Assembly (NCBI GenBank): GCA_965649265.1
Contig: CBFGKC010000009.1
Coordinates: forward strand, 1 to 64,000
From: a candidate division WOR-3 bacterium
Lineage (GTDB): Bacteria > Hydrothermota > Tepidihabitantia > B3-TA06
DNA length: 64,000 nucleotides
Reading direction: 5' to 3'
Shown here: piece by piece, positions 25,598 through 64,000 of the stretch
How positions within the stretch are numbered: the stretch's first letter is position 1
How the letters are laid out: each line of letters starts with the position of its first letter
Notes under the pieces: model-generated
Databases searched by the model: none
What the model saw: only the letters and a program-made list of their open reading frames with translations
What the model was told of the DNA's origin: nothing
Position numbers and translations under genes: made by a program

Positions 25598-25782
25598 GGG
25601 TACGTTACGGGCAGGAGGGGGTGTTACGAGTGTTACGGGGTGTTATTTCCTCTGATCTAAAGCTGCTGATGGAAATGACCTATGGGACGAGGACTCATCC
25701 CAATGGTCAGACCCTGCCCCGAAGGGGTACGGGGTGTTACGGGTTACGGGGGAGGTGTTACGGGTGTTACGGGTGTTACGGG
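25598..25782 (+). repeat. Family A composite: GTGTTACGG tracts flanking an 82-bp three-hairpin core (25646-25727)
   Basis: Core is 78/82 identical to 63481-63562; the last repeat unit contains the mnmA stop codon. Confidence 0.95.
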
Positions 25783-26921
25783 CACGATATTGTTCCGGCC
25801 AAAACTACCTTGTCATCATGGTAGATTACGGCAAGCTGGCCGGGCGTGATGGCCTCGAGTTTGTGGTCGAGAATGACCCTGTCTTCCTCGAGCCGGCAGG
25901 GGACGGAAGGCGTGGCATACCGGATCTTGCAATAGAGGGGGAGGGAGGATAAGTCGCGGTCGGTGAAGCGGTTAATGTTGACGATTCTGAAACAGGTCGA
26001 GCAAAGCGCGGAGCGCGGGCCGACAATCACGCGGTTTTTCTCGGGATCGAGCCGGACCACGAACAACGGCTCTCCTACAGCGATGCCGAGACCTTTGCGC
26101 TGACCGATGGTGTGGAACCAGATACCTTTGTGAAGACCCAGGAAATTGCCTTCAAGGTCGACTATTTCACCCTCTTTCTCGCCAAGATGTTTTTTGAGGA
26201 ACCCTTGCGTATTGCCGTCGGGTATGAAACATATGTCCTGGCTTTCGCGGTTGATGCATGGAAGTTTTTCTTCACGTGCTATCTTTTTGACCTCGATTTT
26301 AGTAAGTTCGCCTAACGGAAAGAGCAGCTTTGAAAGCCGCGACTTAGGGATAAGGGCAAGGAAGTACTCTTGTGATTTTCGATCGTCTTCGGCCTTTGCA
26401 AGGAAGTATTCACGGATTTCAGGAGAGGGTGGAGAGTTCTCTAAGTTATTTTCAGAAAAGACGTTCTCCTGGGGGCGAGAGATGGGTTCCCCTGGTAAAG
26501 GGTTGGGGTCCCCAAAGGAATACTCCGTATTTCTTTGGGGTGATATTTTTGCATAGTGACCGGTGGAGAGGAAATCGGCGCCGAAACGCTCGAAGGATTC
26601 CCAGAAAAGCCCGAAGCGGATGCGCTGATTGCAGACAGCACAGGGATTCGGCGTGCGGCCGTTCTTGTATTCGTCAATGAAGTAGCGGACGACTTCCTCT
26701 TCAAATTGCTTGCGCACGTCGATTATGGAGTGTGGAATGCCGAGTGTGCGGGAGACCTGAACCGCCGCCTCAATATCCTCCCGTGAACAGCACCGGCCGT
26801 CCTCGGACCACATACGCAAGGTAAACCCGTGTACTTCGAAGCCCTGTTCCTTGAGAATGAACGCGGCGACCGAGGAGTCTACCCCGCCGCTCATGCCAAG
26901 AAGGACTTTGCCTTTATTCAT
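25776..26921 (-). CDS. mnmA: tRNA 2-thiouridylase MnmA (Cys-rich type) with an internal insertion
   Basis: MSGGVDSS, RTPNPC, STGHYA, ESQDICF, HTIGQRKGLG and ITPGQ motifs. Confidence 0.96.
   Translation of the reverse strand: MNKGKVLLGMSGGVDSSVAAFILKEQGFEVHGFTLRMWSEDGRCCSREDIEAAVQVSRTLGIPHSIIDVRKQFEEEVVRYFIDEYKNGRTPNPCAVCNQRIRFGLFWESFERFGADFLSTGHYAKISPQRNTEYSFGDPNPLPGEPISRPQENVFSENNLENSPPSPEIREYFLAKAEDDRKSQEYFLALIPKSRLSKLLFPLGELTKIEVKKIAREEKLPCINRESQDICFIPDGNTQGFLKKHLGEKEGEIVDLEGNFLGLHKGIWFHTIGQRKGLGIAVGEPLFVVRLDPEKNRVIVGPRSALCSTCFRIVNINRFTDRDLSSLPLYCKIRYATPSVPCRLEEDRVILDHKLEAITPGQLAVIYHDDKVVLAGTISCP
26505..26542 (-). repeat. Family C REP-like palindrome inside mnmA
   Basis: CCCCAAAGGAATAC-TCC-GTATTTCTTTGGGG. 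On the minus strand it reads ACCCC...GGGGACCCC, as at 59050-59086. Confidence 0.8.
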
Positions 26922-26978
26922 TTCAGTCCAAGTATCTTGACAGGAATCTTATAGTAAGTCACATGATCATAAGACTTC

Positions 26979-27259
26979 TCTGAGAAATGTTCTGAGGGAG
27001 GTTCTGAGGGGGGCTCTGAGGGGGGCTCTGAGGGGGGCTCTGAGGGAGGCTCTGAGGGGGGCTCTGAGGAGGGCTCTGAGGAGGGCTCTGAGGAGGGCGA
27101 GCGTGCGCCAGGGGCGCATGGGCAGAATGGAATTCTGCAAGGAGTGGCCGGAGGCGCTGGACGCAAGCTTTGCTTCCGCCATCTCACTTTTGAATATCAA
27201 TGAGAGCGCCGGAAATGCAATTCCGCAGAAGAGAATACTGAGGGGTTGCTGAGGAGGGC
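26979..27259 (+). repeat. Family B composite: ten 12-bp TCTGAGG(A/G)(A/G)GGC units, a 41-bp two-hairpin core (27099-27139) and degenerate distal units
   Basis: Core is homologous to 10658-10695; the last unit CTGAGGAGGGC abuts the pepA stop codon. Confidence 0.93.
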
Positions 27260-28762
27260 TTAGCCTTCCCATAGCTCGGCAAAACGCAGAAGTGTACGAA
27301 CTCCGAAACCTGTGGCACCTTTCCTGTAGCATGAGTAGTTTTTGTCCACGAACTCTTTTGCGGCCATATCGATGTGCGTCCAGGGTTTATTCCCGGTAAA
27401 GTATTCGAGGAACTTGGCGGCGGTTATTGATCCCGCATGTGCACCGCCTACGTTTTTTATCTCGGCTGCCGTGCTTTCCAGGAGTTCTTTGTACTCATCA
27501 AACATGGGCATTGGCCAGAGTTTTTCGCCGGTGGATGAGGTGTTGTCAAGGAATATTTTTTTCATTTTTTCATCAGAGGTGAAAAGCCCGGCCACTTTTG
27601 TTCCCAGCGCGACAACTGACGCACCCGTAAGAGTTGCAATATCGATGAGGACGGCTGCACCGAGTTCGCAGGCGTAGGATAAAGCATCGGCCATAACGAG
27701 CCTGCCCTCTGCGTCCGTGGAGATTATCTCTACACTGGGTCCTTTGAAACTCTGGACAATATCGCCAGGATTCTGGGCCGCACCGTCGGGCTCGTTCATG
27801 GCGGCAGGAATGAGACCCATGACGTTTCGTTTTATGCCCAGCTTTGCCATGGCAATCAAGGCGCCTGCAACGGCAGCAGCGCCGGCCATATCGCCCTTCA
27901 TGCCTTCCATTCCCTGCGCGGCCTTGATGGAGATTCCGCCGGAGTCGAACATAACACCCTTTCCGATTATTGCCAGCCACGGCGCGCTCTTGCCCGCGCC
28001 GTTATGCATCAAAGACACGAGTCGCGGAGGATTTACGCTGCCCTTTGCGACGCCCCAGAAAAGATTCATACCTTTCTTCTGGATCCATTCTTCGTCGTAT
28101 ACCTCGACATTCGCGCCCGCCTCCTTTGCCGCTTTCGAGACGACCTCTGCAAACCCGACAGGAGTCATGACGTTGCTGGGTTCATTGACGAGATCGCGGG
28201 CGAAGTTTTGAGCCTGGGCCACGATCTCCGCTCGCCTGGCGCTCGACTCGAATGCAGCTATCTTAGCCTGGTCACGTTCGATGACTGTAAGGTTTTCCAG
28301 GCGGGGTTTTGCCTTCTCTTCGTCGGATTTGTACTTGTCGAATCTGTAGGAAGCCAGAATAGAACCAAGGATTGTGGCCTCTGCCGCGGCAGAAGGTTCG
28401 ACACCGCCAATGCCTGCGCCGTGCACTATCGTCATCGCCTTTTTCACGGATATTTTTTCAGCCGCCCAGACCGCTGAGGCCGCAGCGCGCCTGATTTCGT
28501 CGAAGGAAAACTTTTCTCGCTCGCCCAGCCCGACAACCAACACACGCTCGGCCTTTATCTTTCCGCAGGTGTGGAGAATCGCTGTTTCACCCAGCTTCCC
28601 GCTTATATCTCCGGCGGCGATGATTGCCGATATGGCCCCACCGAGCGCGGCGTCCACAGCTCCGGTCGCGCCTGCCGGGGTTTCGACCCCCTTGAAAAGA
28701 TTGACTATGAGAAGGGGCGTTGCTACCGAGGTAACGTCACCTTGCTTAACATCGACTTTCAT
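27260..28762 (-). CDS. pepA: Leucyl aminopeptidase (M17)
   Basis: GKGVMFDSGG, MKGDMAGAA, STDAEGRL and DIATLTGA motifs. Confidence 0.96.
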   Translation of the reverse strand: MKVDVKQGDVTSVATPLLIVNLFKGVETPAGATGAVDAALGGAISAIIAAGDISGKLGETAILHTCGKIKAERVLVVGLGEREKFSFDEIRRAAASAVWAAEKISVKKAMTIVHGAGIGGVEPSAAAEATILGSILASYRFDKYKSDEEKAKPRLENLTVIERDQAKIAAFESSARRAEIVAQAQNFARDLVNEPSNVMTPVGFAEVVSKAAKEAGANVEVYDEEWIQKKGMNLFWGVAKGSVNPPRLVSLMHNGAGKSAPWLAIIGKGVMFDSGGISIKAAQGMEGMKGDMAGAAAVAGALIAMAKLGIKRNVMGLIPAAMNEPDGAAQNPGDIVQSFKGPSVEIISTDAEGRLVMADALSYACELGAAVLIDIATLTGASVVALGTKVAGLFTSDEKMKKIFLDNTSSTGEKLWPMPMFDEYKELLESTAAEIKNVGGAHAGSITAAKFLEYFTGNKPWTHIDMAAKEFVDKNYSCYRKGATGFGVRTLLRFAELWEG

Positions 28763-29061
28763 GACTCCGGCTCCCTGATTTTGATTTGTTTGCTTGCGAG
28801 TATAGGCGCGAGGGGTAGAAAGTCAAATTGGAGAATTGTGACAAGTTACTCCGCAGGAATCAATGAAACGGCAAGGCAAATTCCATCTGCGGCCTTAATA
28901 ATCGTTTGTGCCGCCCTCCCCGCCCCCCCTCCCTCTTCATCAAAGAAAGGATCTGAACCAGGCTTGAGAGAATCCTGAAAAACGCGGCTTTACCGTACAC
29001 CTGTCCCGTTGACTTCGAGAAACATGTATGTATTTTTGTATGAAAGAACCAAGGAGGACGC

Positions 29062-29748
29062 ATGCAAGAACTCACGAACCCGCTTCCGCGCCGCACGCTT
29101 CAGGTTTCCGGAACCGCAGACGTGAAACTTTCACCAGACGTCTGTTACATGACCTTCACGGTCGAGACCGAACACAAGAACGCCGCAAAAGCCTACAAGG
29201 AGATGACCAGGCTCTCGAACCAGATTATCGCGAGGATAAAGGCCCTGGGCATTGACCAGGCCGACATCAAGAGCTTTCACTTCTCGATAATGCCCTATTA
29301 CAAGATGGTCGCGAACACCGCAAGGCAGGTAATCGACGGATACCGCATCTTCTATTACGTGATGGCGACGGTGAGGGATTTGGAGAAGGTCTCGGACGTG
29401 CTGGATACGGCCGTTGAGGCCGGCGCGACAGGCGTTGCGAGCATTAACTTCACCGTGGAGGATGTAAAGAAGCACACGGCGGACGCGCGCGTGCGCGCAC
29501 TTGCGGCTGCAAAGACGAAGGCCGAGAAAACGGCTGATGTCCTGGGCTTCCGGGTTGGAACACCCATCGCTGTCGGGGAGAACGAACCGGGCTCAAGGCC
29601 TTCGTATCCCTACTACGCACAGTCAATGCAGGCAGGCGTGGCCAGGGAGTACGCGGCAGCGCCCCAGGCATCCGGTGTCGCGCTCGAACCGGGCGAACAG
29701 AGCTTTTCGGTGACCGTACACATAACGTATGAGATTGAACCGAGATAG
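29062..29748 (+). CDS. SIMPL (DUF541) domain protein without a signal peptide
   Basis: VSGTADVKLSPD, VLDTAVEAGA and ALAAAKTKAE motifs; C-terminal VHITYEI. Confidence 0.9.
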   Translation: MQELTNPLPRRTLQVSGTADVKLSPDVCYMTFTVETEHKNAAKAYKEMTRLSNQIIARIKALGIDQADIKSFHFSIMPYYKMVANTARQVIDGYRIFYYVMATVRDLEKVSDVLDTAVEAGATGVASINFTVEDVKKHTADARVRALAAAKTKAEKTADVLGFRVGTPIAVGENEPGSRPSYPYYAQSMQAGVAREYAAAPQASGVALEPGEQSFSVTVHITYEIEPR

Positions 29749-29848
29749 AAACCTCGTGGATGCTTGACAATGTAATTCGAGAGTATATCATCTTTTATGG
29801 GCGAATGGCGAGACCGGCTTTGCGTATATTATACTCCTATCCCTAGAT

Positions 29849-29943
29849 TCCCTCACCCTCCCCTCTCCCGATGGGAGAGGGATAAATGCTGCCTCCTCCC
29901 TTCGGGACAAAGAGCCCACCGGTTGAAGGGTTGGGGATGAGGG
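29849..29943 (+). repeat. Palindromic CCCTCACCC/CCCTCTCCC-GGGAGAGGG element, copy 1 (17-bp insertion in the second hairpin)
   Basis: Direct repeat of 30867-30944. Confidence 0.9.
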
Positions 29944-30083
29944 TCCTGTCCTTGAAAAGGATTGCGAGCCTACCTGATACGCAGTGGCGTCAGAGATGCA
30001 ACGTCGGCCAATCGGCAAGGATTGCAGGCTTTGTGTAAGCTATACCTTTATCCATCTTGTTCACCAGTTCAAATTGAAATCTA

Positions 30084-30851
30084 ATGTCTATTAGCGATAA
30101 AACACGCAAGATTTTTTGGGGTCGTGCTGGAAATCGTTGTGCGATTTGCAAAAAAGAATTAGTTGTAGCCGCTACTTCTGATGATAACGAATCAATTATT
30201 GGCGACGAATGTCATATTATTTCCGGCAAGCCAGATGGTCCACGTTATGATCCATCATTCTCACCTAAAAAATCAGATAATCTTGAGAACTTAATTCTTC
30301 TATGTAAAGTTGACCATAAGATGGTAGACGATCAATATGAGACATACACCGTGCATATTCTTCGCCAAATGAAGAACAACCACGAGCTGTGGGTTTCTGA
30401 ACGGTTATCAGATTGGCAATGGCCAAAACAAGTGAGAATAAAAAGACTAAAGCAAAACATACCTGATTATCTTACGCGCCTAACGACAGGCAAAGAAATT
30501 CTGGAGATTTTAGAGCATGCGTGCCAAGTAGAGACAAATCCGTATGACGAATTGAAATCCGAGGAGGAGGCAGATTTGGTTGGTTATTTTTTCGGCTACA
30601 TTCAAGACTGTGACATCCTTGATTATATGGATTTGAACTTACAAGAACGCGTTCATATTGCATTTGAACTTACCAAAATACTTCAACAGCTTGACGATAA
30701 TGGCTTCTGGGTTTTTGGTGCCAGAGAGCTTCGTTTTCTTGAGGCCGACAAAAATGAACCCATGAAATGGCCTATTGCGATTATATGCGTATATCGTAAG
30801 GATAGTATGAGTGAACTTACAATTAGAAAAAATGGAAATCGTCTACAATGA
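30084..30851 (+). CDS. HNH endonuclease with an unknown C-terminal domain
   Basis: AGNRCAIC, ECHII...GPRY and ENLILLCKVDHKMVD motifs; AT-rich relative to its neighbours. Confidence 0.85.
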   Translation: MSISDKTRKIFWGRAGNRCAICKKELVVAATSDDNESIIGDECHIISGKPDGPRYDPSFSPKKSDNLENLILLCKVDHKMVDDQYETYTVHILRQMKNNHELWVSERLSDWQWPKQVRIKRLKQNIPDYLTRLTTGKEILEILEHACQVETNPYDELKSEEEADLVGYFFGYIQDCDILDYMDLNLQERVHIAFELTKILQQLDDNGFWVFGARELRFLEADKNEPMKWPIAIICVYRKDSMSELTIRKNGNRLQ

Positions 30852-30866
30852 GTCATACCTCTAAGG

Positions 30867-30944
30867 TCCCTCACCCTCCCCTCTCCCGAAGGGAGAGGGA
30901 TAAATATTACCTTCTCCCTTCGGGAGAAGGGTTGGGGATGAGGG
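30867..30944 (+). repeat. Palindromic element, copy 2
   Basis: CCCTCTCCC-GAA-GGGAGAGGG and CCTTCTCCC-TTC-GGGAGAAGG hairpins enclosed by CCCTCACCC...GGGGATGAGGG. Confidence 0.9.
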
Positions 30945-30962
30945 AGAAAAGAGGTTTTTGCT

Positions 30963-31385
30963 ATGCGTAAGCGTCCTCTTCCTCCTGAAATTCTTTCCAG
31001 ATGCAGAAAACTTCGAAAATCACAAACGTCCGCAGAATTAAAACTTTGGAGTTGTCTGAAAAACAGGCAAATATTCGGATTGAAATTCCGCAGGCAGCAT
31101 CCGATCGGTAAATTCCTCATTGATTTTTATTGCCACGAAGCCAGAATCGCAATAGAACTCGACGGCGGCGGTCACGCTGAGCCCCCACAAGCTAAACACG
31201 ATAATGAACGTACTAAATTCCTCGAGACAGAGGGAATCAAGGTTTTAAGATTCTGGAATACCGACGTATCAAAAAACCTAGAAGGAGTTGTCAAGGCCAT
31301 TGCCGACGCTGTTCCTTCATCATCACAGGCCTTGGCAGCCAGGATCCCTCACCAGGGAGACTGCGGGAAGGAAAAAACGCACTAG
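30963..31385 (+). CDS. DUF559 (Vsr-like) endonuclease domain protein
   Basis: LRKSQTSAELKLW, KFRRQHPIG, DFYC, IELDGGGH and VLRFWN motifs. Confidence 0.93.
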   Translation: MRKRPLPPEILSRCRKLRKSQTSAELKLWSCLKNRQIFGLKFRRQHPIGKFLIDFYCHEARIAIELDGGGHAEPPQAKHDNERTKFLETEGIKVLRFWNTDVSKNLEGVVKAIADAVPSSSQALAARIPHQGDCGKEKTH

Positions 31386-31451
31386 GCGTGCCGGGAATAA
31401 AAGGCATTTAGAATTGTAATACTCACAAACAGACGATTTTAGGAGGCTACA

Positions 31452-32174
31452 TTGAAGAAGCTTTACATACCGATCCTGGCTTTGTTAATGATACAAGGCT
31501 CGCTGTGGGCAGCTGATGACAGCCAGAAGCCCGAGCGCAGGATGCTCGTGGTCACCGGCACCGCGGACGTAACGGTGGCACCCGACATCTGCTACATCAG
31601 CTTTGCAGTCGAGACCAACAACCGCAAGGCAGGCGACGCCTACAAGGACAATGTGGAACTCATGAACCGCATCAACGCGGCAATCAAGGCGCAGGGCGTT
31701 GAGTCAAAGGACATGCAGACGACGAACTTCTCTATTGCGCCTAACTACCAGTACACGGAAAAGGGCAAGCGCATCTTTCTTGGCTACAGGGTCTACAATA
31801 CTCTTTATATTGGAGTACGCAATCTTTCGAAGGTGCCTGATGTCCTCGACGCGGCCATAGAGGCCGGCGCACTCGACGTCGGCGGTATAACCTTCACGGT
31901 CGAGGATTCCAAGAAATACACCGAGGAGGTACGCAAAGAGGCCCTTCGCAACGCTCGCAAAAAGGCCGAGGAGTCCGCGCAGATACTCGGATTCAAGCTG
32001 GGTACACCGATCACCGTGACTGAGGCTCAACCTTATGACAATTATGTTGGCTACTCCAAGGCAGCAGGGATGCTTGACGGCGCAATGGCCGAGGAGGCCC
32101 CGGCACCTGCAATAGAGGCCGGTCAACTGAAATTATCCAGGACAGTCTACGTGACATACGAAATTTTGCCTTAA
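31452..32174 (+). CDS. SIMPL (DUF541) domain protein, secreted
   Basis: Signal peptide, VTGTADVTVAPD motif, AGGAGG SD with TTG start. Confidence 0.92.
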   Translation: MKKLYIPILALLMIQGSLWAADDSQKPERRMLVVTGTADVTVAPDICYISFAVETNNRKAGDAYKDNVELMNRINAAIKAQGVESKDMQTTNFSIAPNYQYTEKGKRIFLGYRVYNTLYIGVRNLSKVPDVLDAAIEAGALDVGGITFTVEDSKKYTEEVRKEALRNARKKAEESAQILGFKLGTPITVTEAQPYDNYVGYSKAAGMLDGAMAEEAPAPAIEAGQLKLSRTVYVTYEILP

Positions 32175-33340: not shown

Positions 33341-34057
33341 ATGAAGAAGTTTTTTGCTTTAGCCCTTGGGATAGGTTTTTGCGTAACATCCCTTGCGGCT
33401 GCGGACGAGAATAAACCCACACGTACCATTGTCGTCACCGGTACGGCTGAGATAAGCGTCGCTCCTGACATATGCTATATGAGCTTTACCGTTGAAACAA
33501 AGGATAAGAGCGCCATCAAGGCTTACAACGAGAACAACGAGATTATGAACAAGGTTAACGCCGCCGTAAAAGCTCTCGGAATAGAAGCCAAGGATTTGAA
33601 CACGAGCGAGTTCTCAATAATACCCCAGTACTATTACGATGAGAAATCGAGCAAGAATTTGTTCGACGGTTATCTAGTCCACAATACATTGAACGTCAAA
33701 GTGCGCGAGTTGTCAAAAGTCGGCAAGATTCTTGATGCCGCCGTTAACTCGGGAGCGACGATGGTCCAGGGCGTCTCATTTACGGTCGAAAACCCCAAGA
33801 AATACAACGTCGAACTCCGCGAGCAGGCCATAAAGGCCGCCTATGCGAAAGCCTCACAGATGGCCACTCTTACAGGCTTAAAACTGGCTAAGCCCATTTC
33901 GATCTCCGAAGCCGAGCCTAATAATTACTACCAGTACTACGCCCAGGCTAACGTCATGTCCTCAATGTACCGTGACGGTGGCGAAAGTTCACCTTCGATA
34001 GAGGCGGGCGAATTCAAAGTAACCCATACCGTGTACATCACGTACGAAGTCGAGTAA
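33341..34057 (+). CDS. SIMPL (DUF541) domain protein, secreted
   Basis: Signal peptide; VTGTAEISVAPD and ILDAAVNSGA motifs. Confidence 0.92.
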   Translation: MKKFFALALGIGFCVTSLAAADENKPTRTIVVTGTAEISVAPDICYMSFTVETKDKSAIKAYNENNEIMNKVNAAVKALGIEAKDLNTSEFSIIPQYYYDEKSSKNLFDGYLVHNTLNVKVRELSKVGKILDAAVNSGATMVQGVSFTVENPKKYNVELREQAIKAAYAKASQMATLTGLKLAKPISISEAEPNNYYQYYAQANVMSSMYRDGGESSPSIEAGEFKVTHTVYITYEVE

Positions 34058-36922: not shown

Positions 36923-36923
36923 T

Positions 36924-57400: not shown

Positions 57401-58747
57401 TATCTCGTTGATTATCACGTCGGCGCCAATGACCAGCCCCGAGATCCTGCGGCCTGAGCCCGTCGTAGCCGCGCCCTTTATTTCCGGGTTTATCCGGTAC
57501 TTCAGGCAGAACGCCTCGACAGCCCTGAGAATAAGGGTAGTGGCGCCTGTCGGATCGCCCAGGGTCTTGCGATAAAAATCGGCCGTGATTTCACGCGAAG
57601 AGTCCACGAGCACAGCCTTCGTGCTGGTGGAACCAACGTCGAGGCCGAAAAAAAAGACGCAATCGAGAGGTTCCTTGACGACCCTCACCTCGGTCTGATT
57701 CTCATCGGTCCATGATTCCAGTGCGGCAAAGTCAGGGTACTTTGACAGCCTCAGCGCCAGCGCGGGTCTCACCGATCCTTCGCCATCACCGCTCGTTTTT
57801 TTATAGAGCCCGGCGGAAATCGAGGATGCGCTCTCCCCCTCCCCCCCGTTCCGGTTCTTTGATGCGCCGCCGAAATCCAGATCCCGTGAGTTCACCGCGG
57901 TGTTTGAAAGAAGCGCGGCTCCCACGGCCGATGCCAATCGAGCATCGGGAAGAACGTCTATTTCAACGCCAAGTGATCTTTGCAGCCATTCCATGACCCA
58001 GCGATTCCGGCCTACCCCCCCCGCAACCACCGTCTTACCGGAGAGCTTTCTCCCGCGCAGAAGCGTTTGAACGAGATTGGCGGCCATGCCGCGGCACAAA
58101 CCATTCCACATCTCTTCCTTTGAATACCCTTCCTGCTGGCGATGAATGAGATCGGTCTTTGCAAAAACCGCGCACCTGGCCGCGACCCGCGGCGGATTCT
58201 CGATGAACCTGAACCCCTCGATATCGGTGAAAGAAAGATCGAGCCGCTGTCTCTGCTGATCGAGAAATGAACCCGTTCCCGCTGCGCAAAGCGCGTTCTG
58301 GGCAAAATCCTTGAAGACGCCGTCGTTGAGTTCGATGAGTCTTGCCCCCTTGGCTCCGATATCTATGATGTTCATGGAATCGGGGGCGAATTCATTTGTA
58401 AAATGAATGAGAGCTTTTACCGAATCGGTCGAAGGAAACCCGAAAACCTTCTCAAGCAGTTGTGAATAAAAGCCCGTAAAGCCGGCGACTACCGATCCAT
58501 CCAGAAGCTCCGACAAAAAAAACTCTTCGATTTTCTTCAAAGGATCGCCGAAATGCGGCTTGTATAAAAAACGCTTTACATTGCCGCCGGCATCGGCAAG
58601 AATTATCTTCAGGTAGATGGAACCGGCATCTATGCCCACTTTCGGCAAATTATCAATAATATCTATGTCCTTCCTAAAGTTTGAACTGGATTTGCCGCTC
58701 CGGAGATCAGCTCCTTGATATCGAATCTTAAGCATTTTGGAAGGCAT
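54452..58747 (-). CDS. Fused acyl-CoA dehydratase activase (2x BadF/BcrA ATPase, DUF2229 and dehydratase-like domains); start uncertain
   Basis: GIDAGS, CAAGTGSF twice, GLDVGSTSTK, EIGGQDSK, CLPVK..HGH, FACGPD, GPCRFGQY and PFTCMP motifs. Confidence 0.9.
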   Translation of the reverse strand: MPSKMLKIRYQGADLRSGKSSSNFRKDIDIIDNLPKVGIDAGSIYLKIILADAGGNVKRFLYKPHFGDPLKKIEEFFLSELLDGSVVAGFTGFYSQLLEKVFGFPSTDSVKALIHFTNEFAPDSMNIIDIGAKGARLIELNDGVFKDFAQNALCAAGTGSFLDQQRQRLDLSFTDIEGFRFIENPPRVAARCAVFAKTDLIHRQQEGYSKEEMWNGLCRGMAANLVQTLLRGRKLSGKTVVAGGVGRNRWVMEWLQRSLGVEIDVLPDARLASAVGAALLSNTAVNSRDLDFGGASKNRNGGEGESASSISAGLYKKTSGDGEGSVRPALALRLSKYPDFAALESWTDENQTEVRVVKEPLDCVFFFGLDVGSTSTKAVLVDSSREITADFYRKTLGDPTGATTLILRAVEAFCLKYRINPEIKGAATTGSGRRISGLVIGADVIINEISAHARGALKLDPAIKTIFEIGGQDSKYIRLEDGNIVESNLNYVCAAGTGSFVEEQASKLGISLAESGPRALGKKAPYTSDRCTVFMEEDVERLLKKGFSRDEAMAAVLFSVVQNYLTKVVENRPIQGKITFQGATARNIGLVAAFENYLGKEILVSPYCHVLGAYGAALAAMEKRLDKTKFRGIDLYKRKIEVSSSDCPCCVNHCTITSADIEGVEEKPSWGYMCGKEPDSKTVRRDANYGLFEIRRNLLQKSPGTGSRNSSGEGLSNGQFTRTVGIPMVLGFHTYLPFWRGFFAELGLGVQTTGTTDESIIERGTRMSSADFCLPVKVVHGHIEKMSRMNTDFIFLPHMLIMNKGEYYSHVCPYANMFPTLASSSPWYSSERVISPLIDVTWSEEENLKELYESLAPKTGCSRADVKRAWESGWKSHALFSKALREEGEKALSLLEGKGIVLVGRPYSLYDSKISSNLGLEISRVLDMPVFPADFIPVDENIRWQEHRIFWDYGQTILNALKYASEHPDLFPIYVTHFACGPDSCLVTLAEQVMKGKPFMILEVDEHSSPGGYTTRIEAFREAIESYKPRPRKVFELPAWGRTIPDYDHRKVWVPPMHPVGSRFFASVFKKYGLDAEVLPSPDWAAMNIGKSMTSGKECMPAVVTIGTFVKTLREKNLEPGKQAFFMPSSDGPCRFGQYVNLHRIILDREGFEQVAIINPSSYNSYAGLSQSLRLDLWKASLYSDILTKLRCKVKPYEKNAGQTVETFFEAVALLEQAIEEGTHEKTFRKIVGEFREIPLDHRERKPLVGVVGEIYVRCDPFSNEDLLETIEQEGGEVWLTPAAEFLSYSVYSQIVRARRQKNARSFLSGKVTGLITHSSEKRFYRRAADLLSDRIEPSLDQIREYTERYMPFECGTEAVLTLGRAVAFAVENKASLVVNVSPFTCMPGTQTTALFKRVQEEFNVPIINMFYDGEGGTNEKLIVYLRNLER

Positions 58748-58960
58748 GTCAAACCGTTATCCGCAGGGATCGTCGAGTAACCGGTCAATTCCACCTTTCC
58801 AGGACATTTTCGAACCGCCATTTTTACATGGTGAGTGTTATTTTTGCAATAATGGAAATAAAAAAAACTCAGGTGACTTCATAGAAACCATTTTCACTGG
58901 AAATCAGGGAACGATTTTGACCGGCTTTTTTCTCAAAAAAACACCCGAAAAACCTCGATT

Positions 58961-59004
58961 TGTCCATCTTTTGACCATCTTCTGTCCAACTTATGTCCTA
59001 CTTA
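58961..59004. repeat. Four direct repeats with an exact 11-bp period
   Basis: TGTCCATCTT, TGACCATCTT, TGTCCAACTT and TGTCCTACTT start at 58961, 58972, 58983 and 58994. Confidence 0.75.
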
Positions 59005-59049
59005 GTTATCCACATTTTTGACGCGTTCGATTAATCCTGACCTCCTTTT

Positions 59050-59217
59050 ACCCCACAAAATCGCTCCACGATTTTGCGGGGACCCCGATTGCCGCAGGGG
59101 CGGCTGACCGTCCAGAGGACGGTTTGAAGTTTGCCCCTATTTTTTTGTCTTGAGGGCAAACTTCTGACGATGAAAGTCATTGCTCCCCGCAAAAATGCAA
59201 GACATTTCTATGGGGTG
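59050..59217. repeat. Hairpin mosaic bounded by two inverted family C palindromes
   Basis: Palindromes at 59051-59081 and 59185-59215; internal hairpins at 59091-59104, 59107-59123 and 59126-59164. Confidence 0.8.
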
Positions 59218-59290
59218 TCAAGATTGACAAAAACCTGCGGTGGAGTAAAATACTGTCTTGGAAAATTGTCGCTTTTCGAAATTCATGTAA

Positions 59291-59364
59291 GCCCCCGTAG
59301 CTCAGAAGGATAGAGCGACGGTTTCCTAAACCGTAGGCCGTGGGTTCGAATCCCTCCGGGGGTA
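59291..59364 (+). tRNA. tRNA-Arg(CCT), CCA not encoded
   Basis: GCCCCCG/CGGGGGT acceptor stem, TAGCTCAG D-arm, ACGGT-TTCCTAA-ACCGT anticodon arm and GGTTCGAATCC T-arm; promoter TTGACA(59224)-16-TAAAAT. Confidence 0.96.
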
Positions 59365-59381
59365 TTTAAGAAAGGAGTTAT

Positions 59382-60107
59382 ATGCCGAAACGATCTGTTT
59401 CTTATCGTACTGGACACAAGCACATCCACCAGGAAGATGCATTTACAAAAGCGGTAGGGAAGGTCTACGAATATTACACCAAGTCACCGCTTCAGGCAAT
59501 CTTAACCACTGTCGGTGCTATCGGCGTGGTGGTTTTAGGCACCATTTTCCTCGTCAGGATTCTTGGAGGCACACAAGCGGCTCCACCAAAAGAGGCTTCA
59601 CTCTCCTTGAGAACCGCTCAGATTCTATTACAACAGCAGAATGTAAAGGCATCTGAAGACAGCCTGCGGAATCTTATCAACCGTTATCCCAAAACCGTTC
59701 CGGGCAAAAAGGCGATTTATTATCTCGGTCAAGCCCTTTACTTCGAAGGAAGGTATCCTGAAGCAAGAGAACAATTTGCGAAATTTGAAAAAGCTTATCC
59801 TAACAAAAAATCCTTCCTTCTTGCATCTGCTCTTTACGGAGTGGCAAATTGTTATGAAGAAGAAGGAAAGCTTGAGGAAGCTGCGGCAACCTATCTCGAT
59901 CTTACGAAGAAGTACCCTAAATCCGGACTTAAGCCTCATGCTCTGCTGGGCGCAGGACGCTGTTACATTCTCGCAAAAAAATACGACAAAGCCCAACCCT
60001 TGCTTGAACAAATAACAAAGGACTACCCCAGAAGGGAATATCCAGTCATCTACGCAAAGGCAGAAAGTCAGCTTGGAGAAATTGAAGCCCTGAAGAATTT
60101 ATTTTAG
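59382..60107 (+). CDS. Membrane-anchored TPR protein (YfgM/CpoB/BamD-like)
   Basis: Single TM followed by TPRs with repeated KxYP motifs. Confidence 0.82.
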   Translation: MPKRSVSYRTGHKHIHQEDAFTKAVGKVYEYYTKSPLQAILTTVGAIGVVVLGTIFLVRILGGTQAAPPKEASLSLRTAQILLQQQNVKASEDSLRNLINRYPKTVPGKKAIYYLGQALYFEGRYPEAREQFAKFEKAYPNKKSFLLASALYGVANCYEEEGKLEEAAATYLDLTKKYPKSGLKPHALLGAGRCYILAKKYDKAQPLLEQITKDYPRREYPVIYAKAESQLGEIEALKNLF

Positions 60108-60616
60108 GGATTTTCGTTCGGCTTTACTTTGGGTTTTAGTGTCGTTTCCTCGAGTAGGGAAATGTAATCCATGCGTGCAGCTTCAAACGAGGCTTTAGCC
60201 AACTCGCGCTCATTAAGTGCAGGTTTGCTGGTATCTTTCCCGGCAATCAATTCGCGAACATAACGTTCCCCCTCCCCTATACCTGAAGAAAAGGCGAGGC
60301 GATATATTCCGAGAAGAGAGTTAGTAAGGGCAGAATCAAGTTCTATTCCCGAAGAATCACAAAAGGCTTCCATTGAATTTATGCCCGTAACACCCCAGGA
60401 ATTAAGAGCTTCAGACTCGACGTTTATCTCCGAGGATGTCAGTGTCCCGGCAAGGAAGCCTTCGGCGGCTTCCAGGGTAAAAATCATACCTTCTATGAAA
60501 CCCATCTCGTATGCGTGTTCTGCAAGAGCTTCACGAAGCTGCCTGTCCTTGCTGTTACAGGAAATTGTGGAAAGCGAAACCAGGAACGCGATAAAAATGA
60601 AGATTGTTTTTTTCAC
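60104..60616 (-). CDS. Hypothetical lipoprotein
   Basis: GTG start gives MKKTIFIFIAFLVSLSTISC (lipobox); promoter TTGACT-17-TATACT-5 nt-GTG. Confidence 0.75.
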   Translation of the reverse strand: MKKTIFIFIAFLVSLSTISCNSKDRQLREALAEHAYEMGFIEGMIFTLEAAEGFLAGTLTSSEINVESEALNSWGVTGINSMEAFCDSSGIELDSALTNSLLGIYRLAFSSGIGEGERYVRELIAGKDTSKPALNERELAKASFEAARMDYISLLEETTLKPKVKPNENP

Positions 60617-60650
60617 TTCCGAGTATAGAACCATAGCCGGAAAAAGTCAA

Positions 60651-60727
60651 CCCGTAACACCTCCCGTAACACCTCCCGTAACACAACCCGTAACACAACC
60701 CGTAACACAACCCCGCGCCCGTAACAC
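60651..60727 (-). repeat. Family A tandem tract, 12-bp units
   Basis: CCCGTAACACCT x2, CCCGTAACACAA x3 and one more CCCGTAACAC; abuts the -35 box at 60645-60650. Confidence 0.95.
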
Positions 60728-60975
60728 GCTGCAATAACCAACGTCTCGGCGAGCGTAATGAAACTTCTCGTACCCTTAAAGAGATGGGCCTGAGTGTGGA
60801 TTAAGGCTTTATTCCCGAAAGCGGTTTCCACCCCAGAGGATAACTCACCGGTGCTCAGCGCATGAAACATGAGCCGTGATCCATACCTTCAACATGCCTG
60901 CGAGCTTATCTTTTTTTGTTGCGACTCTCGAGCTGCATTACATTGACAGCGTTTGCGGCGAACGTATCATCTGCA

Positions 60976-61983
60976 ATGTTTAAAACTGTACGGCCCTTCA
61001 TCTTTTTAACGCTGCTTGCGGCTTGTTCAAGCGAAAAGTATCTCGAAGAAACCCGATTCCCGATGAGTACCTATTTCAAGATCAAGATATGGGGCTCTTC
61101 TGATGAGATGTTGAACAAGGCAATGGATGAGGCATTCAGGGAGGTGGATAGAATTGACAGTCTCACAAGCGCCTTCAGCCCCTCCAGCGCGGTATGGGTT
61201 TTGAATACGAAGGGGGAGGTGGTCTCGGCCGATCTTGCAGAACTCGCGACCAGGGCGCTTGAAATAAGCAGGGAAAGCGGTGGCTCTTTCGATCCGACGG
61301 TGCTCGGGCTGATGAATCTTTGGGGATTCAGGGACTCCACTCATTCCAGCTACAGGGTTCCATCAAAAGAAGAGATAGATTCAGCACTTAGTTACGTTGA
61401 TTACAGAAAGATCGCGGTATCCGGCGATACGGTAAGCCTGAGGCCGGTCGGCGAAGAAGCTTTGAGGATTAATAGAGGTTCCAAAGGGCTCCTCTGGGGC
61501 GTCGATCTCTCGGCGATTGCCGAAGGCTATGCGGTGGACAGGGTAATCAGGATACTCAAGGAAAATGGAGTATCAAGAGGCATTGTGGACGCAGGAGGCG
61601 ATATAGGCTGTTTCGGCGAGCGAAAGGGCGGATGGAGCATAGGGATAAGAAATCCCAGAGGTGAAGGACTGCTTGCCATCGTTCATGTTAAAGAGGGAGG
61701 CATAGGAACGTCTGGGGATTATGAGAACTTCTTCGAAAAGGACGGCCAAAGGTATCATCATCTGATGAACCCGGCAACGGGTTACCCCGCACGAGGAGCG
61801 GTATCGGCGACCATAATTGCACCTACCGCGACCGAGGCCGATGCATGGGCAAAGCCTTTATTCGTAATGGGTGAGAAGGGAATCTCATTCCTTGATTCGA
61901 TGGGTAGAATTCAAGGCATGCTGGTGATGAATGACGGTCGAATATTGACCACTAAAGGATTCCCGAAACTGGAAAAACCGTGA
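60976..61983 (+). CDS. apbE: FAD:protein FMN transferase ApbE (lipoprotein)
   Basis: LAAC lipobox; FDPTV, DLSAIAEGYAVD, DAGGDI, GTSGDYE and RYHHLMNP.TGYP motifs; start ATG 60976. Confidence 0.93.
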   Translation: MFKTVRPFIFLTLLAACSSEKYLEETRFPMSTYFKIKIWGSSDEMLNKAMDEAFREVDRIDSLTSAFSPSSAVWVLNTKGEVVSADLAELATRALEISRESGGSFDPTVLGLMNLWGFRDSTHSSYRVPSKEEIDSALSYVDYRKIAVSGDTVSLRPVGEEALRINRGSKGLLWGVDLSAIAEGYAVDRVIRILKENGVSRGIVDAGGDIGCFGERKGGWSIGIRNPRGEGLLAIVHVKEGGIGTSGDYENFFEKDGQRYHHLMNPATGYPARGAVSATIIAPTATEADAWAKPLFVMGEKGISFLDSMGRIQGMLVMNDGRILTTKGFPKLEKP

Positions 61984-62963
61984 AGGAAGCGCTCTATTAC
62001 GAAAAGCTGGAAGGCCAAAGAGTTCGCTGCAAGCTGTGCTTTCACGAATGCATACTTGCCCAGGGAGATGAAGGTTTCTGCCTCGCGAGACGAAATGAAG
62101 CAGGCGTCCTTGTGGCAGAGACCTACGGTGAACTCGTGGCCGCGCATCTTGATCCAATCGAAAAGAAGCCGCTTTATCATTTTCACCCCGGGGAGGAGAT
62201 ACTGTCGGTGGCCGCTTCGGGCTGCAATCTTGCCTGTCCCTTCTGTCAGAACGTTGAGATATCAAGAAAGCACACCGCATCCGAATTCGCGTCTCCGGCA
62301 AAGCTTGTGGAGACTGCAATGCGCAGCCGTTCAAAGGGCATTGCCTACACCTACACCGAGCCGCTTGTGTGGTTCGAATACGTGCTTGATACCTCAAAAG
62401 CGGCGCACAAGAAAGGCCTGTACAACGTTATTGTCTCTAACGGAACAATAAACGAGGAGCCTTTAGCCGGGCTTATCCCCCATCTCGATGCCGCAAACAT
62501 AGATCTCAAGGGCGACAGGGAGTTTTACCGCAAGGTTCTCAAAGGCGACAGGGATTCAACCATAAGGACGATAAGGATGCTCCACCAGGCGGGCGTCCAT
62601 GTCGAGGTGACGCTATTGCTGATTCCGGGCGGGAATGATTCCGAAGAGCAGGCCGAGGAGGAAATTTCCTTCATTGCGTCGGTGGACTGCAGAATCCCTT
62701 TCCACATTTCCAGATACTTCCCTCACAACGCTTACCCCTCTCCCCCTACGCCTGTGGAAACCATGGAAAGAGTATACTACAAAGCCAAGGAACGACTCAC
62801 CTATGTTTATCTCGGCAACGTTATGCTCGAACGCGGAAACGACACCTGCTGCCCTCACTGCCAGGCAGTGCTCGTGGAACGAGCCGGATATCGAATCAAG
62901 ACAACAGGGATAAAAGATTCGCGCTGCATCTCATGCGGCAGAAAAGTCGATTTCGTGCTGTGA
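61980..62963 (+). CDS. amrS: AmmeMemoRadiSam system radical SAM enzyme
   Basis: DPIEKKPLYHFHPG, GCNLACPFCQN, AYTYTEP and YVYLGNV motifs. Confidence 0.92.
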   Translation: MKEALYYEKLEGQRVRCKLCFHECILAQGDEGFCLARRNEAGVLVAETYGELVAAHLDPIEKKPLYHFHPGEEILSVAASGCNLACPFCQNVEISRKHTASEFASPAKLVETAMRSRSKGIAYTYTEPLVWFEYVLDTSKAAHKKGLYNVIVSNGTINEEPLAGLIPHLDAANIDLKGDREFYRKVLKGDRDSTIRTIRMLHQAGVHVEVTLLLIPGGNDSEEQAEEEISFIASVDCRIPFHISRYFPHNAYPSPPTPVETMERVYYKAKERLTYVYLGNVMLERGNDTCCPHCQAVLVERAGYRIKTTGIKDSRCISCGRKVDFVL

Positions 62964-63328
62964 ATCGCATTTTTAAGAGAGCCGACGTGATTCTAGCCGT
63001 CGTCATCGTTATGGCAGCAGGCGCAGTGTGGCTCACGACAAGCCTCCTCAACCACAAAGGTGAAGCCAGAACGATAAAGATCAGCTCTGCAAAAGATGAC
63101 TTCGAGATTCCGCTCTCGGATACCCTTCTTGAGATTCCTGGGGTGTTAGGACAAACCTCGATAAGGATCAAGGACGGCCAGGTATGGGTGGAGAAGGCCT
63201 CATGCCCTAATAAGGTGTGCGTGAGACAGGGAAAAATCTCAAAGCCGGGCGAGACGATAGTGTGTCTTCCGAACAGGGTAGTAATCACGATTGAAGGAGC
63301 GAAGAAAACCGATGCGGTCACGTACTGA
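62960..63328 (+). CDS. NusG domain II-containing protein
   Basis: KRADVIL + TM, ASCPNKVCV..G.I and IVCLPNRVVI motifs; GTGA overlap at 62960. Confidence 0.9.
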   Translation: MNRIFKRADVILAVVIVMAAGAVWLTTSLLNHKGEARTIKISSAKDDFEIPLSDTLLEIPGVLGQTSIRIKDGQVWVEKASCPNKVCVRQGKISKPGETIVCLPNRVVITIEGAKKTDAVTY

Positions 63329-63377
63329 GAAATGTGAAGGAAGAATGAATCCGGAAAGCGAAGATTGAGGACTGCAG

Positions 63378-64000
63378 TTGAACAAGAAGACACTTAAAGG
63401 GAAAAAAAGACGATACGTCACGAATTCGGAACAAAAAGTGGAAGAGACGGATGGAAGTGTTGCGGGTGTTGCGGGTGTTATTTCCTCTGATCTAAAGCTG
63501 CTGATGGAAATGACCTGTGGGATGAGGACTCATCCCAGGGGTCAGACCCTGCCCCGAAGGGGTATGGGTGTTACGGGGGGTGGAGGTGTTACGGGTGTTA
63601 CGGGTACGGGTGTTACGGGTACGGGTGTTACGGGTACGGGAGGCTTAACGCCGAGACAGAGAAACCTGGCGCTTCTGGCCGGTCTTTCTGTCGCGCTTTA
63701 CACTTTAGAGAATCTCATACCGCTACCGATTCCCTGGCTGAGGATAGGAATAGGCAACGTCGGCGTGCTGATGGCGCTTTATATGCTCGGTCCGCTGGAC
63801 GGCTTTTTCGTGTTATTGATCAAGATAGTGGTGGGTTCGCTTCTTTCGGGTAGATTTCTGGGGCCGTTCTTTATTTTCGCGCTCGGCGCTGGAATACCCT
63901 CGTACTGGATCATGGCGGGTGTTAAAAAACTTTTCGGACGCGTGTTCGGGCCTGTAGGCGTAAGTGTTGCAGGTGCATTGTTTCACAACATCTTCCAGCT
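63378..64000 (+). CDS. Gx transporter family (heptaprenyl-PP synthase component I-like) membrane protein; 3' end outside the window, start uncertain
   Basis: Manual translation from 63645: LTPRQRNLALLAGLSVALYTLENLIPLPIPWLRIGIGN...GVSVAGALFHNIFQ. Frame is open back to TTG 63378 (GAGGA SD). It is the usual partner of NusG II proteins. Confidence 0.8.
   Translation, partial: MNKKTLKGKKRRYVTNSEQKVEETDGSVAGVAGVISSDLKLLMEMTCGMRTHPRGQTLPRRGMGVTGGGGVTGVTGTGVTGTGVTGTGGLTPRQRNLALLAGLSVALYTLENLIPLPIPWLRIGIGNVGVLMALYMLGPLDGFFVLLIKIVVGSLLSGRFLGPFFIFALGAGIPSYWIMAGVKKLFGRVFGPVGVSVAGALFHNIFQ
63457..63640 (+). repeat. Family A composite: tracts of 9-15 bp units flanking the 82-bp three-hairpin core (63481-63562)
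   Basis: GTGTTGCGG x2, then the core, then GTGTTACGGG and (GTGTTACGGGTACGG) x3. Confidence 0.95.

Follow-up and report, generated by a model that had tools for sequence, protein, structure and literature searches.

What kind of element is an 82-nt, three-hairpin cassette that occurs twice, at the same position of a G-rich tandem repeat (the A tract)? We addressed this in a 64-kb stretch of DNA, called the window here, from a bacterium that protein searches place in a WOR-3-like lineage. Both cores lie where the initial annotation had put them (Table 1). They are identical at 78 of 82 positions, and the four differences, at positions 37 (A/G), 43 (C/T), 58 (A/G) and 59 (T/G), are all confined to hairpin 2, between its TGACC and GGTCA arms. 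With either core as the query, blastn-short finds no copies in the window beyond these two. The cross match has an E value of 1e-33 and the next-best window matches span 9-16 nt with E >= 0.2, so the similarity is not due to chance. In both copies the core is bounded by GTGTTA-TTTCC... on the left and ...GGGG-TA(C/T)GGG on the right. Terminal inverted repeats are indeed lacking in either copy, as the ends TTTCCTCT... and ...CGAAGGGG are not mutually inverted. The longer composite described below likewise ends without inverted copies, its flanking tracts being direct repeats.

Table 1. Positions of the cassette cores, A tracts and related features in the window, and modules in proteins of relatives.
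Feature	Position	Strand	Remarks
Cassette core, copy 1	25646..25727 (82 nt)	+	hairpins 25645-25676, 25676-25709, 25717-25727
Cassette core, copy 2	63481..63562 (82 nt)	+	hairpins 63480-63511, 63511-63544, 63552-63562
Upstream A tract, copy 1	25621..25645	+	GTGTTACGAG GTGTTACGGG GTGTTA
Downstream A tract, copy 1	25728..25786	+	irregular GGAGG unit; last unit overlaps the mnmA stop codon (25776-25778)
Upstream A tract, copy 2	63457..63480	+	GTGTTGCGG x2, then GTGTTA
Downstream A tract, copy 2	63563..63644	+	9-nt and 6-nt units, GGAGG irregularity
Solo A tract without cassette	10403..10475	-	directly upstream of a promoter-like site for surE
Solo A tract without cassette, 12-nt units	60648..60727	-	directly upstream of the promoter-like site of a lipoprotein gene
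Ancestral Gx-transporter gene start (MRSRTE...)	63312..63368	+	overlaps the NusG_II end; in-frame TGA 63366-63368
P0162, DUF2752 protein tail			two cassettes
P0163/P0164/P0165, HdrA family			module in frame
P0166, labelled TA06	ends residue 157		module in frame, before PUA-like domain 159-190

Folding recovers all three hairpins on either strand, in agreement with the structure first described. On the plus strand, copy 1 has a predicted energy of -34.1 kcal/mol (z -1.8) and copy 2 one of -44.4 (z -4.5); on the minus strand, the values are -33.9 (z -3.2) and -34.3 (z -3.3), respectively. Stable predicted folds on both strands, with z down to -4.5, might suggest a structured non-coding RNA, either a small RNA gene or a cis-regulatory leader of three hairpins. 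On the minus strand the C/T difference at position 43 would be a G-U wobble and hairpin 3 would carry a UUCG-type loop; judging from gene order, copy 2 may also be part of an operon transcript. However, none of the four differences is compensatory, the core contains no promoter-like or terminator-like site, and its orientation relative to the neighbouring genes is opposite at the two loci, where these genes are unrelated. The Rfam scan of the window places no family at the cassette: only a tRNA (59291-59364) reaches its gathering score, and around either copy a search at E <= 10 gives nothing better than E 1.7 (10-17 bits). Relatives carry the module within coding sequence. The RNA option of the initial annotation is thus very unlikely, given the blank Rfam result, the opposite orientations and the in-frame position of the module within relatives' proteins.

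The homology between the two loci continues past the cores. It spans 25621-25786 and 63457-63623, with 151 matches, 9 mismatches and 5 gaps, and includes an irregular GGAGG unit 3' of the cassette that is common to both copies within the aligned tracts. The unique DNA around the two composites is unrelated between the loci. The copied unit is a ~166-nt tract-cassette-tract composite, and the window holds two recent copies of one such unit. The number of tract units differs between copy 1 and copy 2, and degenerate units continue upstream of copy 1 back to about 25589. Both cores sit at the identical register of a GTGTTACGGG unit, so the previously reported sharing of the position in the repeat holds. 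Since the tract flanks are shared, the two copies are not independent witnesses of target choice or TA duplication; the "same position" and the "TA duplication" represent one event, because the flanking tract was copied together with the core. Of the proposed double insertion into pre-existing tracts with TA duplication, the TA flanks are confirmed, but two separate events are not, the tract having been co-copied.

The TA that flanks the 82-nt core left and right in each copy would fit an IS630/mariner-type MITE that duplicates its TA target. Such an origin is extremely improbable, as the terminal inverted repeats of that family are missing, the two junctions go back to one inherited event and a 2-nt match arises by chance in 1 of 16 cases. 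The 3' TA also fits a GGGTAC tract unit and may simply belong to the tract, because GGGTAC units stand alone in the tract of copy 2.

Copy 1 is intergenic and antisense to both of its neighbours, with the mnmA stop (25776, minus strand) on one side and the pheT start (25262, minus strand) on the other. Copy 2 is located between a NusG_II gene (62933-63328, plus strand) and the membrane domain of a Gx transporter on the same strand. Here, the annotated ORF P0123 reads through the cassette and the tract, and copy 2 lies within the N-terminal tail annotated for the transporter. The downstream tract translates as GVTG repeats in this protein, and an ATG at 63564 arises from a C/T difference adjoining the core. 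The composite is placed between the ancestral MRSRTE start and the conserved LTPRQRN (from 63645); the Gx orthologues P0136 and P0137 begin with MRSPTEL(S/T)PRQRN.

The same frame, VISSDLKLLMEMT.G.RTHP.GQTLPRRG.G, is open across the core in both copies. It could encode a functional peptide, favoured by selection in the tails of membrane proteins and the linkers of enzymes: the frame is also open in every relative found, KMPRRGTG is well conserved among the relatives' cassettes, and the annotated Gx protein includes the cassette. The search, however, was able to find that frame only. In this one open frame, each of the four nucleotide differences between the copies is non-synonymous, so there is no sign of selection on the peptide. 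At the end of mnmA, to which copy 1 is antisense, the sole ORF has 67 aa and overlaps the stop of that gene; the cassette is missing from 13 of 22 Gx orthologues, and the ORFs that read through it match no Pfam or NCBIfam family apart from the transporter domain. We consider a selected coding module highly improbable.

A family limited to these two copies would have spoken against a mobile element, but there are further members in relatives, known as protein translations. These cassettes were read from predicted proteins only, in one searched frame, and the DNA copies are the two in the window. When 8000 candidates were scored with a profile of the cassette peptides, 10 proteins reached E <= 0.01. 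Gx orthologues account for five of them, and the other five are non-orthologous proteins with GVTG-cassette-GVTG in frame at the protein level, placed in tails or linkers (Table 1). In P0164, the module (residues 326-364) lies between stretches alignable to solved HdrA (58-222 and 371-510). P0165 has one extra GVT unit compared to P0164, which indicates tract length variation. At the protein level, the cassettes of the WOR-3/TA06-labelled genomes are shorter and are always bracketed by tract-encoded GVTG in the same register. The window-type core is 8-10 codons longer, and the surplus falls in hairpin 1, in its loop and 3' arm; three hairpins are therefore not a family-wide feature.

At the Gx locus of relatives, 0, 1 or 2 cassettes occur among near-identical orthologues. 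The 22 orthologues (P0123-P0144) comprise five with one or two cassettes, three with a forward tract only, one with reverse-orientation units and 13 with neither tract nor cassette. Near-identical cores separated by branch lengths of 0-0.04 differ in this respect, P0124, P0126 and P0127 having the tract only and P0128 and P0134 the cassette. P0125, the sister of the window's Gx protein, has neither. The tract junction GTGG-LTPRQ is common to the window protein and P0124, which could reflect long vertical residence at the Gx locus instead of repeated insertion.

No transposase, reverse transcriptase or nuclease gene was identified in the 64-kb window with Pfam and NCBIfam, and the other searches did not point to a candidate transposase either. 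A strict two-anchor pattern found 28 loci in 185,579 species genomes, all of them chance matches, and the window-type cassette peptide had only 2 matches among 1.84 billion representative proteins, both unrelated repeat proteins. Plasmids and phages gave no match to the cassette. None of the papers searched joins WOR-3 to repetitive elements, and those naming WOR-3 together with a tandem repeat are on other subjects. A diversity-generating retroelement was rejected, as the differences (A/G, C/T, A/G, T/G) are not confined to adenines and the window contains no reverse transcriptase.

IS200/IS605-derived and REP/REPIN-RAYT elements have no terminal inverted repeats, carry hairpins at or near their ends and produce no secure target duplication, and the cassette is similar in all three respects. 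It could derive from such an HUH single-strand transposon (IS200/IS605-type palindrome-associated or REP/RAYT-type) that recognises subterminal hairpins and inserts beside GTTA or TTAC in the unit, with no duplication. Hairpin 1 begins at the junction and hairpin 3 ends 0-2 nt from it, and the junctions permit insertion of the core plus TA after GTGTTA without a duplication. The V-(M/I)-S and R-G-T-G residues present in all relatives' cassettes imply that the junction is common to them. Yet IS608 inserts 3' of TTAC, while the left junction of the cassette follows GTTA, and hairpin 1 seems to be missing from the shorter core of relatives. The direct tandem repeats always found on both sides of the core are foreign to that family, and the window ORFs include no Y1/HUH transposase, TnpB or RAYT gene (Pfam, NCBIfam). 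An HUH derivative is in our estimate quite unlikely. A REP/REPIN element proper was rejected: the core consists of three different hairpins and not of an inverted pair of one unit, and the window has no RAYT-like ORF.

Another possibility is that the G-rich tracts are the main feature, a simple repeat of the G-quadruplex type that is dispersed and plays a role near promoters. The cassette, with no insertion machinery of its own, would have arisen once within a tract, and the flanking units would serve as arms for the homologous recombination or gene conversion by which alone it spreads. The identical register and the flanking irregularities common to both copies fit this, as do the tract-only Gx orthologues and the solo tracts in the window, two of which abut strong promoter-like sites (10/12 matches each). 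The tracts also fit the G3N1-7 quadruplex motif, which occurs 11 times in the window (200 shuffles averaged 1.6 and never exceeded 5), and quadruplex-forming G-rich tandem repeats are found across intergenic DNA in Xanthomonas and Nostoc, according to the available text of the source (PMC4692102). The tracts would, however, need a dispersal mechanism of their own, because many independent origins of one specific 9-10-nt unit are impossible. In the HdrA-like and PUA-domain proteins, which are otherwise unrelated, tract and core occur together, and the arms of homology are short, the upstream one measuring about 25 nt. We regard this scenario as rather unlikely.

With moderate confidence, we interpret the cassette as the central part of a composite interspersed repeat that is lineage-specific and non-autonomous and is arranged as (GTGTTACGGG)n - hairpin core - (GTGTTACGGG)n. 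By analogy, the best reading is that it behaves like the Rickettsia palindromic elements and the pneumococcal BOX elements. A non-autonomous repeated element tied to GTGTTACGGG tracts, as the initial annotation had suggested, is supported by the lack of a mobility gene in the window and by the GVTG-bracketed cassettes elsewhere in relatives. An enzyme whose gene lies elsewhere in the genome would insert the composite as one unit, most likely recognising the hairpins or the decamer ends on single-stranded DNA. Recognition of single strands is favoured by the lack of both terminal inverted repeats and a secure target duplication. The arms formed by the tracts may subsequently lengthen and shorten through slippage, and recombination of the flanking direct repeats could remove the core, giving rise to solo tracts. 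The element probably has no dedicated cellular function. Its effects would be by-products: transcript hairpins and G-quadruplex-type runs, extra low-complexity residues and possibly the new start codon at 63564.

A bolder version, which we consider improbable, is a new type of mobile element. Its arms would be self-extending, quadruplex-prone decamer arrays. An enzyme would use its core for recognition or priming, insert the element and also lay down the GTGTTACGGG units. If so, many solo tracts, including those at the upstream edges of promoters, would be its footprints, and the element would play a large part in shaping the protein tails and intergenic DNA of WOR-3/TA06-type genomes.

The favoured composite repeat has practical consequences. 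It makes gene callers extend or invent N-termini, the annotation of the window's Gx transporter being an example, and its sites are hypervariable and useful for strain typing. The abundance of G-rich tracts beside promoter-like sites also makes it a testable question how quadruplex DNA relates to transcription in these organisms.

None of the named repeat families fits an architecture in which direct tandem decamer arms surround a hairpin core. The small dispersed repeats of Nostoc are cyanobacterial, mobile-looking inserts of 21-27 nt nested in heptamer tandem repeats. The cassette is similar in being a mobile-looking insert in a short tandem array, a likeness that we take as a lead only. The GGGNATC-type repeats of Xanthomonas and Nostoc, in the available description, are G-rich, dispersed and mostly intergenic, with a variable unit number and a motif of four G-runs (PMC4692102). 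The window tracts share the G-richness, dispersal, mostly intergenic location, variable unit number and four-G-run motif, but their units measure 9-12 nt compared to 7, and the accessible part of that source describes no hairpin cassette (PMC4692102).

The pneumococcal BOX element, boxA-(boxB)n-boxC, is modular, with a variable tandem module, predicted folding of the transcript, an open frame and length variation between strains, as outlined in the available portion of PMC3049150. The composite likewise combines a unique module with a tandem module of variable number, with one or two cores per locus. It also resembles BOX in its predicted folding as a transcript, its open frame and its variable length. 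In BOX, the same portion of the source places the 45-nt tandem module internally, describes the ends as inverted repeats and mentions reported target duplications (PMC3049150). In the composite, by contrast, the unique hairpin core is central and is flanked by direct tandem repeats with units of 9-12 nt; the BOX-like pairing of terminal inverted repeats with target duplication is not seen, the composite having no inverted ends.

Rickettsia palindromic elements are, in the available text of the source, non-autonomous, hairpin-forming sequences of about 100-150 bp with no known transposase, which are intergenic and, unusually often, in frame within unrelated protein genes, where they add a peptide (PMC10969869). 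The cassette resembles this description: it is short, non-autonomous and hairpin-forming, the hairpins being found in the two window copies, and protein predictions place it in frame in HdrA-like, PUA-domain, DUF2752 and Gx-transporter proteins. The Rickettsia elements lack the tandem decamer arrays that bracket the cassette, whose WOR-3/TA06-labelled host is unrelated to Rickettsia, and no sequence similarity was seen. The cassette would add an uncultivated WOR-3/TA06-labelled lineage to the few in which small palindromic repeats colonise protein genes in frame.

The two 82-nt cassette cores lie where the initial annotation had placed them, and pairwise comparison agrees with its count (78/82 identical). 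The four differences, at core positions 37, 43, 58 and 59, are confined to the part of hairpin 2 enclosed by its TGACC and GGTCA arms. A sensitive blastn search with either core finds only these two copies in the 64-kb window (cross match E 1e-33, next matches 9-16 nt). Folding of both copies recovers the three described hairpins, and does so on both strands. The energies for copy 1 and copy 2 are -34.1 and -44.4 kcal/mol on the + strand (z -1.8 and -4.5), and -33.9 and -34.3 kcal/mol on the - strand (z -3.2 and -3.3). The repeat is real and not an artefact.

The similarity extends into the flanking A tracts, which are tandem arrays of GTGTTACGGG-type units. When the two intergenic regions are aligned locally with gaps, 25621-25786 pairs with 63457-63623 (151 matches, 9 mismatches, 5 gaps). 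The aligned stretch includes two and a half units of the upstream tract and several units of the downstream one, among them an irregular GGAGG unit common to both copies. Judged by this alignment, copy 1 and copy 2 derive from one tract-cassette-tract composite of ~166 nt. The junctions are GTGTTA^TTTCC...GGGG^TA(C/T)GGG at both copies. The shared position within the tract unit and the TA on both sides, from which a target duplication had been proposed, are indeed present. As the flanking tracts are co-aligned, they constitute one observation rather than two. Furthermore, GGGTAC units occur on their own in the copy-2 tract, so the 3′ TA is readable as part of a tract unit. A TA target duplication is weakly supported. 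An IS630-type MITE, to which such a duplication would point, is unlikely: neither copy has terminal inverted repeats, as noted earlier, and membership of the IS630/mariner MITEs fails on this ground.

All four core differences are non-synonymous in the open frame, and none (0/4) is a compensatory change in a hairpin. With two sequences compared, this is weak evidence and seems to favour neither peptide nor RNA constraint. A selected peptide module, in which the encoded residues would be maintained for their own sake, is unlikely.

The features of the window are listed in the table.

Coordinates of the repeats and associated features in the window
Feature	Position	Strand	Setting
Copy 1, core	25646-25727		Between mnmA stop (25776) and pheT start (25262), both genes - strand
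Copy 2, core	63481-63562		Between NusG_II gene (62933-63328, +) and Gx-transporter membrane domain (Pfam Hpre_diP_synt_I, +); sense orientation
Solo A tract	10403-10475	-	Without cassette
Solo A tract	60648-60727	-	Without cassette
Promoter-like site	10373-10400	-	ACGGG-TTGACC-16-TACAAT, 10/12 matches
Promoter-like site	60622-60650	-	ACGGG-TTGACT-17-TATACT, 10/12 matches
Start codon ATG	10367		surE
Start codon GTG	60616		Lipoprotein
Lone intact GTGTTACGGG unit	60384-60393	-	Within lipoprotein coding sequence
Second tract-plus-cassette family	10617-10742		
Second tract-plus-cassette family	26979-27150		About 100 nt longer
76-nt repeat pair	29835-29943, 30853-30944		Adjoins paralogous genes and a DUF559 endonuclease-like ORF
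SIMPL/DUF541 matches (Pfam)	31452-32174, 33341-34057		Two of the paralogous genes
mnmA	25776-26921	-	
S8 subtilase genes	1-8447		Three tandem paralogues; third with C-terminal FlgD Ig-like domain

The gene content of the window is that of an ordinary chromosome and includes three S8 peptidases, surE, guaA, lon, RNase Y, pheT, mnmA, pepA, addAB and others. None of its scanned ORFs was recognised as a transposase, reverse transcriptase or HUH enzyme. The genes beside copy 1 are functionally unrelated to those beside copy 2. Because mnmA and pheT are both on the - strand, the G-rich strand of copy 1 is antisense to local transcription. Relative to the adjacent genes, the two copies therefore have opposite orientations. 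The mnmA stop codon is furnished by the last tract unit of copy 1.

The window contains 35 matches to GTGTTACGGG at one mismatch or fewer (2.3 expected), clustered in four tracts, two with a cassette and two solo. G3N1-7 motifs are likewise in excess (11, versus 1.6 in shuffles); a four-unit array, (GGGTGTTAC)4, is a candidate for quadruplex formation. Neither core contains a promoter-like or terminator-like site, and a terminator was dropped as a candidate since there is no T run. Each solo tract ends directly at a strong promoter-like site, and surE and the lipoprotein gene have their start codons 5 nt beyond the -10 hexamer, the arrangement of leaderless mRNAs. The lone unit in the lipoprotein gene encodes GVTG (...NSWGVTGINS...).

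Other repeats are present in the window. In the second tract-plus-cassette family, a hairpin-rich stretch common to both loci, GGCGAGCG..CGCCAG.GGCGCATGGGC.GAAT...ATTC, is bordered by G-rich tandem repeats of TCTGAGGAGGG / GGCTGAGG type; its layout is like that of the A-tract cassette, while its sequence is different. The members of the 76-nt pair are 84% identical, with abundant CCCTCTCCC/GGGAGAGGG hairpins and G runs.

The best non-self matches of MnmA have 89% and 76% identity, then about 60%, and the named ones are labelled candidate division WOR-3. This drop indicates a sparsely sampled lineage. A low-complexity internal insertion some 25-45 residues long (…PGEPISRPQENVFSENNLENSPPSPEIRE…) is present around residues 130-170 of MnmA in the window and in the 89% relative; the more distant homologues in the alignment lack it.

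The annotated Gx-transporter protein of the window (P0123, 237 aa) begins with GTG 63438; its frame runs through the upstream tract, the cassette and the downstream tract into the transporter. With the frame open through copy 2 as query, 39 proteins were obtained, of which 26 were read; the 13 left out (P0149-P0161) have at most 46% identity to the query. The shortest orthologues, P0136 and P0137, open with MRSPTEL(S/T)PRQRNLALLAG. The equivalent start in the window, at 63312 (MRSRTE), overlaps the end of NusG_II; 315 nt intervene after MRSRTE, and LTPRQRN resumes at 63645. Owing to an in-frame TGA at 63366, the gene needs either read-through or a later start, which could be the annotated GTG or an ATG at 63564 that arises from the C/T difference beside the cassette.

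The site between codons 6 and 7 of the Gx gene is a hot spot. Across the 22 orthologues (P0123-P0144), the tail before LL(A/G)GLS varies from 15 to 100 residues. Five tails bear cassettes: one each in P0123, P0128 and P0134, and two separated by GVTG, the peptide encoded by tract units, in P0139 and P0141. A forward tract only (GVTG repeats) is found in P0124, P0126 and P0127 (3/22), reverse-orientation units in P0130 (1/22), and neither tract nor cassette in the remaining 13. The P0130 tail reads RNTP...RNTP, the translation expected of a reversed unit, and the tract at this locus may thus run in either direction. In a maximum-likelihood phylogeny of their conserved domain, P0124, P0126, P0127, P0128 and P0134, tract-only and cassette-bearing proteins alike, differ hardly at all (branch lengths 0-0.04). 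Tract and cassette are both missing from P0125, the window's sister (94% identity, support 91/85). These near-identical orthologues with differing tails indicate that presence varies between very close relatives, by gain or loss.

In the peptide alignment, the relatives' core reads V(M/I)SETTGRKPQVIVKMPRRGTG and that of the window VISSDLKLLMEMT(C/Y)G(M/T)RTHP(R/N)GQTLPRRG(M/T)G. In the window, GTGTTA^T... and ...GGGG^TACGGG encode the residues that the relatives have at their junctions, V-(M/I)-S and R-G-T-G, and PRRG, encoding hairpin 3, is retained. The window core is 8-10 codons longer. Its extra residues, DLKLLMEM and TH, map to the loop and 3′ arm of hairpin 1, which therefore seems particular to the window-type core. 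In a codon-degenerate hairpin test, a test without power, none of 10 relatives' peptides had an optimal stem better than those of residue shuffles (68-194 of 200 equal or better). The window copies are 95% identical, yet their resemblance to the cores of the relatives at this locus is distant, which argues for recent copying or homogenisation within the window's genome.

A profile built from the cassette-peptide alignment (A3) was searched against longer proteins. Among 8000 scored candidates, 10 reached E <= 0.01, namely five Gx orthologues and five new proteins. P0162, a DUF2752 membrane protein (domain 128-165), carries GVTGVTGGTG, two tandem cassettes and VTGVTG in its N-terminal tail (residues 20-79). 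P0164, P0165 and the fragment P0163 belong to an HdrA-family enzyme labelled WOR-3. The P0164 module (residues 326-364), GGVTGVTG-VMSLRPERKLRVIVKMPRRGTG-VRGVTGVTG, is located between stretches alignable to solved HdrA (58-222 and 371-510 versus 5odc_A), and P0165 has one extra GVT unit. In P0166, labelled candidate division TA06, the module (residues 116-157) directly precedes a PUA-like domain (159-190).

At the protein level, in the one frame searched, the core is bracketed by tract-encoded residues in every case, suggesting that tract and core travel together. The main rival explanation takes the tracts as primary, with the core hitch-hiking by gene conversion between them. The window repeat belongs to a family with more than two copies. 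Its shorter members in related genomes, known from protein sequences, answer the earlier concern that only two copies might exist.

Searches for further copies were also performed. The two-anchor pattern TGGAAATGACC-N22-30-GGTCAGACC, specific to the window-type core, was scanned over genomes, one per species, in a collection evidently without the window's own genome. All 28 loci found, in unrelated taxa, match at the anchors only and none has a GTGTTACGGG unit, so we regard them as chance. The 201-nt composite has no blastn match in plasmids and phages. The relatives' cassette peptides give no further copies in the window by tblastn. With phmmer, the 35-aa window-type peptide matched two of 1.84 billion representative proteins, both unrelated and internally repetitive. 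Published mentions of the decamer appear, in the portions of text available, to be unrelated and primer-type.

The initial annotation had left a choice between a non-autonomous element and a structured RNA. A structured-RNA gene, for which the hairpins would be the evidence, is unlikely: Rfam at gathering scores yields a single match in the window, a tRNA, and no meaningful match turns up near either copy at E <= 10. A hammerhead-like core (CUGAUG...GAAA) was dropped because it has no stem II and no Rfam match. A DGR template/variable pair, an integron attC and a retron were considered and dropped.

The best-supported explanation is the other alternative, a lineage-specific, non-autonomous composite interspersed repeat. 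The comparisons show that the composite is copied whole, in either orientation relative to genes, with one or two cores per locus and a variable unit number, and that it is present in some and absent from other near-identical orthologues. At the protein level, in the one frame searched, it resides in frame within tails and linkers of unrelated proteins. An enzyme encoded elsewhere would insert the composite in one piece. Given the lack of inverted ends and of a secure duplication, our preferred guess is a hairpin-recognising single-strand enzyme. The tract arms would change by slippage, and recombination between the flanking direct repeats would remove the core and leave solo tracts.

A partner gene of an IS200/IS605 derivative or REP/RAYT type is absent from the 64 kb. 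We found no literature combining WOR-3 with repetitive elements, and publications on WOR-3 and 'tandem repeat' appear to concern other subjects. In behaviour, the repeat is closest to the Rickettsia palindromic elements, which are small, form hairpins, have no known transposase and often lie in frame within unrelated genes (PMC10969869). The tracts alone are similar to quadruplex-forming tandem repeats described in Xanthomonas and Nostoc (PMC4692102). Closest in architecture are the pneumococcal BOX elements, described as modular, with a tandem module of variable number, open frames and folding upon transcription (PMC3049150); however, BOX elements have inverted ends and their tandem module is internal. 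The window repeat is a small non-autonomous palindromic or modular repeat with an unusual layout.
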